DNA of 64,000 nucleotides, taken from positions 2,048,493-2,112,492 of the forward strand of contig NW_004797316.1 of the NCBI RefSeq assembly GCF_000002075.1. Direction: 5' to 3'. The translations under genes were made by a program, and so were the position numbers. This DNA is from Aplysia californica (Eukaryota). Below are positions 1,266-1,371 of the stretch, one piece after another; positions within the stretch are counted from its first letter, which is position 1, and the number at the start of each line of letters is the position of its first letter. A model generated the notes under the pieces. The model was not told where the DNA came from. It worked only from the letters and a program-made list of their open reading frames with translations, and searched no databases.

Positions 1266-1371
1266 GTCAGGGCTGATGAGGCTCACTGAGCCCAAACAAA
1301 CAAGAGGATTTTACGAGAACCATTTCAGTGGCTCTCGCAGCTGTTCACATTATGCGTTTGTCCTATGTGAC
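1266..1371 (+). ncRNA. Type I hammerhead ribozyme-like motif, core G12 mutated to C
   Basis: Stem I GTCA-G-GG (1266-72) / CT-ATG-TGAC (1363-71); CTGATGA (1273-79); stem II GGCTC-act-GAGCC (1280-92); CAAA instead of GAAA (1293-96); stem III ACAAAC (1296-1301) / GTTTGT (1356-61); cleavage triplet GTC ending at 1362. Confidence 0.7.

Follow-up and report, generated by a model that had tools for sequence, protein, structure and literature searches.

The 64,000-nucleotide stretch of Aplysia californica DNA analysed here (the window) carries, at positions 1266-1371 of the + strand, a motif with the parts of a type I hammerhead ribozyme and one change in its core. The motif lies in a low-copy segment flanked by mid-copy repeat pieces (1002-1094 and 1560-1645) that resemble each other. 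The features concerned are listed below, with the evidence for each in brackets.

1095..1560, no strand assigned: low-copy segment carrying the motif, between two mid-copy repeats (run contigs, depth; related contigs from about 1200 to 1560 only)
1202..1291, + strand: a second contig, diverged and present in runs X1 and X2, aligns here (contigs; ends estimated from bin depths and the distance to the contig end)
1266..1371, + strand: type I hammerhead motif with one core change (G12C), probably inactive (sequence, shuffle counts, folding)
1266..1272, + strand: 5' strand of helix I, made of GTCA (pairing with 1368-71), a bulge and GG (pairing with 1363-64) (sequence)
1273..1279, + strand: core CUGAUGA (C3-A9), intact (sequence)
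1280..1292, + strand: helix II, five Watson-Crick pairs including G10.1-C11.1, with a 3-nt loop ACU (folding, sequence)
1293..1296, + strand: CAAA instead of GAAA, the general base G12 being C at 1293 (sequence, run contigs)
1296..1361, + strand: helix III, six pairs (1296-1301/1356-61), closing a 54-nt arm (1302-1355) (sequence, shuffle counts)
1314..1337, + strand: hairpin within the helix III arm, 1314-22/1329-37, 8 of 9 pairs (sequence, folding)
1316..1419, + strand: inverted repeat 1316-29/1406-19, 13 of 14 pairs, an alternative helix rivalling the arm hairpin (sequence, shuffles, folding)
1360..1362, + strand: GUC triplet, with would-be cleavage predicted after C17 at 1362 (sequence)
1393..1416, + strand: possible minimal (Penelope-type) hammerhead relic (likeness to the consensus in part of the PMC4209133 supplement)

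A preliminary description of this DNA had proposed a type I hammerhead with C in place of G12, and all of its parts were found in place on a base-by-base check, as was the 54-nt stem III loop with its inner hairpin. Helix I consists of outer pairs between GTCA (1266-69) and TGAC (1368-71), and of core-side pairs between GG (1271-72) and CT (1363-64), the latter comprising one G-C and one G-U. Just two pairs thus adjoin the core, and the other continuous register (CAGGG/CTATG) gives four of five pairs. The C3-A9 element matches the type I consensus CUGANGA, and is followed by helix II (GGCTC 1280-84 with GAGCC 1288-92), by the G12-A13-A14-A15.1 element with its single departure at 1293, and by helix III (ACAAAC 1296-1301 with GTTTGT 1356-61). 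The A15.1-U16.1 pair, H17, three core-adjoining helices and an open helix I are all present.

The chance level of this arrangement was estimated with three descriptors, each tolerating a single mismatch in the core and a loop III no longer than about 100 nt. The strict one, fitted post hoc to this site, requires five Watson-Crick pairs in helix II and six in helix III; a looser one requires at least four Watson-Crick pairs in each of these stems, and the loosest admits G-U pairs and a stem III of at least three pairs. As a null set, the non-N bases of the window (60,514) were shuffled 1308 times at the dinucleotide level, and both strands were scanned. The site at 1273 was the sole match in the window under all three descriptors, and the opposite strand gave no hammerhead under any of them. 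The strict descriptor matched none of the 1308 shuffles, the looser one matched 2/1308 and the loosest 274/1308. On these counts, the motif is very likely a hammerhead by descent.

Rfam reported no hammerhead at E<=10 on 4000 bases or on 196 bases around the motif, where it returned sub-threshold matches to unrelated families only. This agrees with the earlier remark that short-loop models would overlook such a motif. The blank weighs little as evidence against a hammerhead, since eight control loci with intact cores (L096-L103) also stayed below the Rfam gathering score, three giving a hammerhead match at E<=1 and five none. Six of these controls (L096-L101) are viral-contig loci found by a search for helix II followed by GAAAC, and all six are, by sequence, intact type I hammerheads with a helix III of 6-9 pairs (in L096, eight pairs and a 40-nt loop). 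For L103, from a Caulobacteraceae MAG, a type III hammerhead is predicted as a possible structure, its loop I being 33 nt long. A reading of the motif as a C/D snoRNA (TGATGA...CTGA) was rejected, the corresponding Rfam matches reaching only 7-14 bits.

Contigs from 4 of 24 runs (X1, X2, X9 and X19) were aligned to positions 940-1840 at 80% identity, a procedure that catches relatives within 20% divergence, while rare variants are dropped in assembly and short pieces may be missed. None of the 24 listed runs is recorded as RNA, which speaks neither for nor against expression. In contigs covering position 1293 in all four runs, no G was listed among the differences, so C1293 cannot be put down to misassembly, and no polymorphism is visible there. 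The general base of the hammerhead is G12 (PMC6155905); in the full-length ribozyme, G12A is reported to slow the reaction about a million-fold (PMC2553840), and G12C is named among core changes said to abolish turnover (PMC11875169). In PMC3088659, any core change disqualifies a hammerhead match. Among the spanning contigs, four variant sites were listed in 1095-1560, one of them pair-preserving (C1297T in X1, which keeps the helix III pair as U-G). A downstream GAAA (1376 or 1409) was considered as a substitute in the core, reached through a long helix II, and was dropped because the pairing failed on inspection.

Folding was predicted in four sequence contexts, with energies that leave out tertiary contacts. 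The hammerhead-constrained fold lay 8.7, 14.9, 13.5 and 14.9 kcal/mol above the minimum energy, against a gap of 0.0 in 6/6 intact phage hammerheads used as controls; in prediction, the active fold is thus poorly accessible. Pair probabilities were at most 0.03 for helices I and III, and 0.16-0.97 for helix II depending on context, while the arm hairpin reached 0.76-0.96 in three of the four contexts and 0 in the fourth. The motif region folds no better than shuffles (z -0.24). The word "fold" in the preliminary description was thus not confirmed, nor was "branched" for stem III: with this stem enforced, a multiloop and a structure in which helix III is prolonged irregularly but without branching come within 0.5 kcal/mol of each other. 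The view that the copy is probably inactive gained support, both because G12 is C in all four runs and because the hammerhead fold is predicted to be energetically disfavoured. For the latter reason, restoring G12 alone might not revive cleavage.

The carrier of the motif was characterized by the same contigs. X1, X2 and X9 each have one contig that runs through the entire segment; differences and gaps together number 3-5 in about 800 bases. Total depth over 1095-1559, relative to the spanning contig, was 1.0-2.14 (X1), 1.0-1.56 (X2) and 1.0-1.11 (X9), giving a maximal excess of 1.14, 0.56 and 0.11 respectively; from 1653 on, depth rose to 58-3073, 29-1993 and 7-216 times the spanning contig. 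The motif-bearing segment is not an abundant family, the neighbouring repeats setting the contrast, though depth does not equal copy number. The contig spanning 940-1765 was itself deeper than the other contigs listed (304 versus 19-57 in X2, and 22 versus 3-8 in X9), contig depth in these two runs gauging neither copy number nor expression. The two 151-base pieces from X19 (organism C), with 1 and 0 differences, were too nearly identical to count as cross-species conservation.

For a second contig, present in X1 and X2, the listed differences place six substitutions and a gap of 3 bases in 1229-1258 and nothing in 1259-1291. Its unchanged part covers the helix I strand, CUGAUGA and helix II, and it stops before position 12; the 5' half of the ribozyme is thus better kept than the DNA just upstream. 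This contig could be a divergent haplotype instead of another locus. Additional short contigs are implied by the bin depths near 1304-1348 (over the arm hairpin, in X2), 1374-1435, 1467-1497 and 1529-1559, with none at 1126-1187, and the excess within the segment peaks at 1374-1435. No go-back (tandem) joint was listed inside the element in the contigs of the four runs, and no second copy of the segment was found within the 64-kb window. Of the dispersed family proposed earlier, diverged related sequence at a few other loci therefore stands, and abundance does not, the excess depth being slight. Close, active members were not borne out either: at 80% identity there are a few short contigs only, with no G at 1293 and no tandem joint.

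Repeats of rising abundance are nested around the motif (1012-1079, 1560-1645, 1645-1727 and 1728-1840). The first is a 24-pair hairpin repeat (z about -3) with a related piece at 1560-1645; the family starting at 1645 contains CCCTAA repeats, and a very abundant family starts at 1727-28. A degenerate telomere-like GTAGGG/TTAGGG array lies at 489-597. The CCCTAA repeats at 1714-28 were considered as a sign of a telomere-targeting Penelope-like element (PLE), and this link was dropped because the repeat that contains them is a different one, of far higher abundance.

Elsewhere in the window, a dispersed repeat at 1-421 has copies near 21837-22289, 23432-23933, 39492-39683, 52343-52927 and 59393-59752, and with a perfect B-box at 13-21 it is probably a true tRNA-derived SINE. 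Rfam RF00005 matches, with 31.8 bits, a tRNA-like sequence on the - strand (12409-12481), possibly a SINE head or a pseudogene. A segmental duplication with an offset of about 30 kb joins 14889-19726 to 44533-49974 and 20118-21988 to 50630-52495 (87-93% identity). Two uninterrupted protein-kinase ORFs on the - strand (8262-9518, 418 codons, and 37067-38257, 396 codons) are 83% identical over about 1 kb. Among 51 proteins listed for the former, the best 12 non-self relatives are all from Aplysia californica (11 of them MNK-like, 49-77% identity) and the next named gastropod protein stands at 42% identity; the two ORFs apparently belong to a lineage-specific expansion of intron-poor MNK-like genes. 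A 135-codon frame on the - strand (53644-54051), with no Pfam match, ends in a C2H2-like motif reminiscent of a LINE C-terminus.

The preliminary description had placed the motif in a SINE-like repeat with a TTG tail. A tRNA gene search over the host segment found none, and a scan with the general A- and B-box consensus gave no A-box and one B-box with one mismatch; together with the Rfam result, no tRNA-, 5S- or 7SL-derived head carrying both boxes was detected. There is no tandem array at the supposed TTG tail, no direct repeat of eight or more bases around 1090/1560 that could be a target duplication, no simple-repeat tail and no high copy number. The similarity of both segment ends was considered as a target duplication and set aside, as it belongs to the flanking repeat's own subunit. 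The host segment is not a SINE.

Comparison with retrozymes gave a mixed result: in its way of working the motif would resemble pLTR and retrozyme hammerheads, while several retrozyme traits are missing. Non-LTR retrozyme units are given as 150-450 bp long with less than 50% GC (PMC7229834), and the segment is of comparable size, has a GC content of 0.46-0.49 (47%) and is apparently non-coding, Pfam giving no match for any of five short frames examined. The window holds a single unit, as opposed to tandem units each with a type I hammerhead. Self-pairing of the segment was weak, with z -0.77 in linear form and -0.2 to -1.5 in circular form, the latter computed for four choices of ends on a decayed copy, whereas a retrozyme monomer is highly self-paired. 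No reverse transcriptase (RT) or GIY-YIG remnant was found beside the motif.

Two further elements, absent from the preliminary description, were noted, and both are leads rather than findings. An inverted repeat as good as 1316-29/1406-19 occurs in 11/1000 shuffles, and its helix dominates the predicted fold of 1240-1440 but falls to at most 0.07 in longer contexts (that is, it prevails in one of the three contexts that contain it). The putative relic at 1393-1416 lies 30 bases 3' of the main motif, is overlapped by the 1406-19 repeat arm, and was noted for its likeness to the minimal hammerhead consensus CUGANGAH G..C GAAAN NUH given in the PMC4209133 supplement. It has two core mismatches, a 2-pair helix II, GAAA and no proper helix I, and a descriptor written for it post hoc matched 21/3000 shuffles and two other sites in the window.

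We favour, with moderate confidence, the reading that an old hammerhead retro-repeat of low copy number, of the Penelope-pLTR or retrozyme kind, left a solo copy here that has since decayed. The ancestral activity, the carrier class, the Penelope link and the present neutrality are what we infer, along the following lines. RNA of the ancestral element would have been made by read-through transcription, and its ribozyme would have cut after C17, setting the end of the transposition intermediate; because helix III has six pairs, it would have been able to do so as a monomer. Copies would then have been inserted by a Penelope-type reverse transcriptase. The present copy would have lost G12 and drifted in helix I, so that it no longer cuts and is presumably neutral. 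Read-through, self-cutting and copying by a Penelope-type reverse transcriptase have been proposed for pLTR hammerheads and retrozymes (PMC4209133; PMC7229834; 10.64898/2026.07.22.740005), and for retrozymes solo monomers, few-copy families and a match to PLE pLTRs are reported (10.64898/2026.07.22.740005). As the locus has no tandem unit, target duplication or RT/GIY-YIG remnant, the Penelope link would be one of analogy with this literature. The size and GC content of the segment and its diverged relatives, patchy over about 1200-1560, are consistent with a decayed retro-repeat. Against it stand the failure to obtain an intact member, a consensus or covariation (one pair-preserving variant, C1297T), and the helix I (2+4 pairs), 3-nt loop II and long helix III, which are unlike canonical animal motifs. 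Perfect stems II and III are also a little surprising in a copy old enough for all its relatives to be more than 20% away.

The same dead hammerhead might have had another carrier. It could be a piece, copied back into DNA, of a circular RNA of viroid-like type or of an unclassified retroelement whose hammerheads have long helix III arms, as those of phages, fungi and protists do. PMC4209133 reports a large helix III without evident contact between loops I and II in bacterial motifs and in the PLEs of fungi and protists, and phage locus L096 combines an identical helix II with its 40-nt loop III; very few relatives, no tandem arrangement and a competing long-range helix, as in self-paired circles, would also suit such an origin. 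However, the patterns tried found no homologue in the viral, metagenome or prokaryote collections: the viral collection gave 0 loci, the metagenomes 75 loci (none continuing into a GAAA-type core, and no BLAST match of more than 29 bases) and the prokaryote genomes 20 loci, for which BLAST gave nothing at E<=0.01. With the weak self-pairing of the segment, linear or circular, and an opposite strand lacking a hammerhead, we regard this origin as unlikely. Somewhat less likely again, in our view, is that the locus is one mutated copy from a SINE or retrozyme family in which close, active members are numerous. A few diverged contigs do match, one with the 5' core retained, and active members may be more than 20% diverged, or lie in contigs too short to align, given what assembly and alignment lose; yet the excess depth is minute beside that of the neighbouring repeats in each of X1, X2 and X9, position 1293 shows no G, go-back joints within the element are missing, and so are a Pol III head, a tail and a target duplication.

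If the host had kept the locus, either for a structured RNA that does not cut or for a switch that is slow and regulated, C12 would be accounted for differently, the change being tolerated because cutting would have ceased to be its function. Constancy of C1293 in 4/4 runs and the small number of variant sites in the segment would fit, and conserved single hammerheads are known from amniote introns (PMC3088659); but the hammerhead conformation is not predicted to form, the region gives no folding signal, and four runs of nearly one sequence are no test of selection, which makes retention very improbable in our judgement. About as little credit can be given to a chance arrangement of short motifs in low-copy DNA, which we rate marginally lower still. 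The core mismatch, the weak helix I and the lack of an Rfam match speak for it, as do the post hoc fitting of the descriptor, the ease with which the loosest one is matched and the many windows scanned, but the strict and looser shuffle counts speak against it, the Rfam blank is shared in kind by the controls, and the second contig retains exactly the 5' core region.

As it stands, the locus is one broken ribozyme of little biological consequence, and its value is that of a pointer. Published animal surveys give helix III as absent or of 1-2 pairs, so a family with a 6-pair helix III and a 54-nt arm would escape those descriptors and Rfam. If intact relatives exist, they would widen the structural range of animal hammerheads and could show in nature a ribozyme whose own helix III arm acts as its switch. 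A bolder proposal, which we hold to be unlikely, is an undescribed family of small sea-hare retro-repeats with the 54-nt helix III arm as a trait, pairing alternatively with the downstream hammerhead-like core (1316-29/1406-19) as a two-ribozyme switch, and with intact, diverged members elsewhere in the genome. If true, it would represent a monomer-competent, long-armed class of animal hammerheads missed by short-loop searches, and possibly what remains of an RNA circle of the viroid-like kind. In the hammerheads of amniote introns helix III is sturdier. A literature search at the level of listings and abstracts in one paper library found no hammerhead paper on Aplysia or gastropods, and the portions searched of the supplements of PMC3088659, PMC4209133 (in part) and PMC8557442 hold no Aplysia entry and no match to the motif.

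Among known systems, tRNA-derived SINEs share with the window segment the character of a dispersed, non-coding insert of similar length set among other repeats, and differ from it in having a tRNA head, an A/B-box pair, a simple-repeat tail, a target duplication and high depth. Animal non-LTR retrozymes (coral, mussel and axolotl; PMC7229834; 10.64898/2026.07.22.740005) are closer in kind, with type I hammerheads in animal genomes, a host sequence that does not code and measures a few hundred bases, a GC content under 50% and solo monomers. The window copy differs from them by its lack of a tandem unit and of an intact core, its low depth and its weak self-pairing. It differs also in shape, having a helix III of six pairs with a 54-nt arm, a helix I of 2+4 pairs and a 3-nt loop II, whereas canonical animal type I motifs have six pairs in helix I, four in helix II and 1-2 in helix III with a 2-4-nt loop (PMC4209133).

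The pLTR hammerheads of Penelope-like elements are likewise type I, mostly dispersed single motifs that vary strongly within a genome (PMC4209133), and the possible minimal-type relic at 1393-1416 near the window motif adds to the likeness. Those of animal PLEs are minimal, with no helix III and an extra base after A9 (PMC4209133), and in this respect the window motif, with no RT or GIY-YIG beside it, is their opposite. According to PMC4209133, helix III is large in the PLE hammerheads of fungi and protists, and a tertiary contact is not evident in them; PMC3088659 mentions a mouse hammerhead whose loop is very large. The phage hammerheads L096-L101 have the same helix II, for which they were searched, and a comparably long helix III, and differ in their intact GAAA, in 4-7 core-adjoining pairs of helix I and in having the hammerhead as minimum-energy fold; compared at the core only, nothing suggests their common descent with the window motif. 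The combination of a 6-bp helix III and a 54-nt arm is odd for animals, is known from fungal and protist Penelope elements and is seen in a phage contig. Judged by its sequence, the motif is thus closest in shape to the hammerheads of fungal and protist PLEs and of phages.
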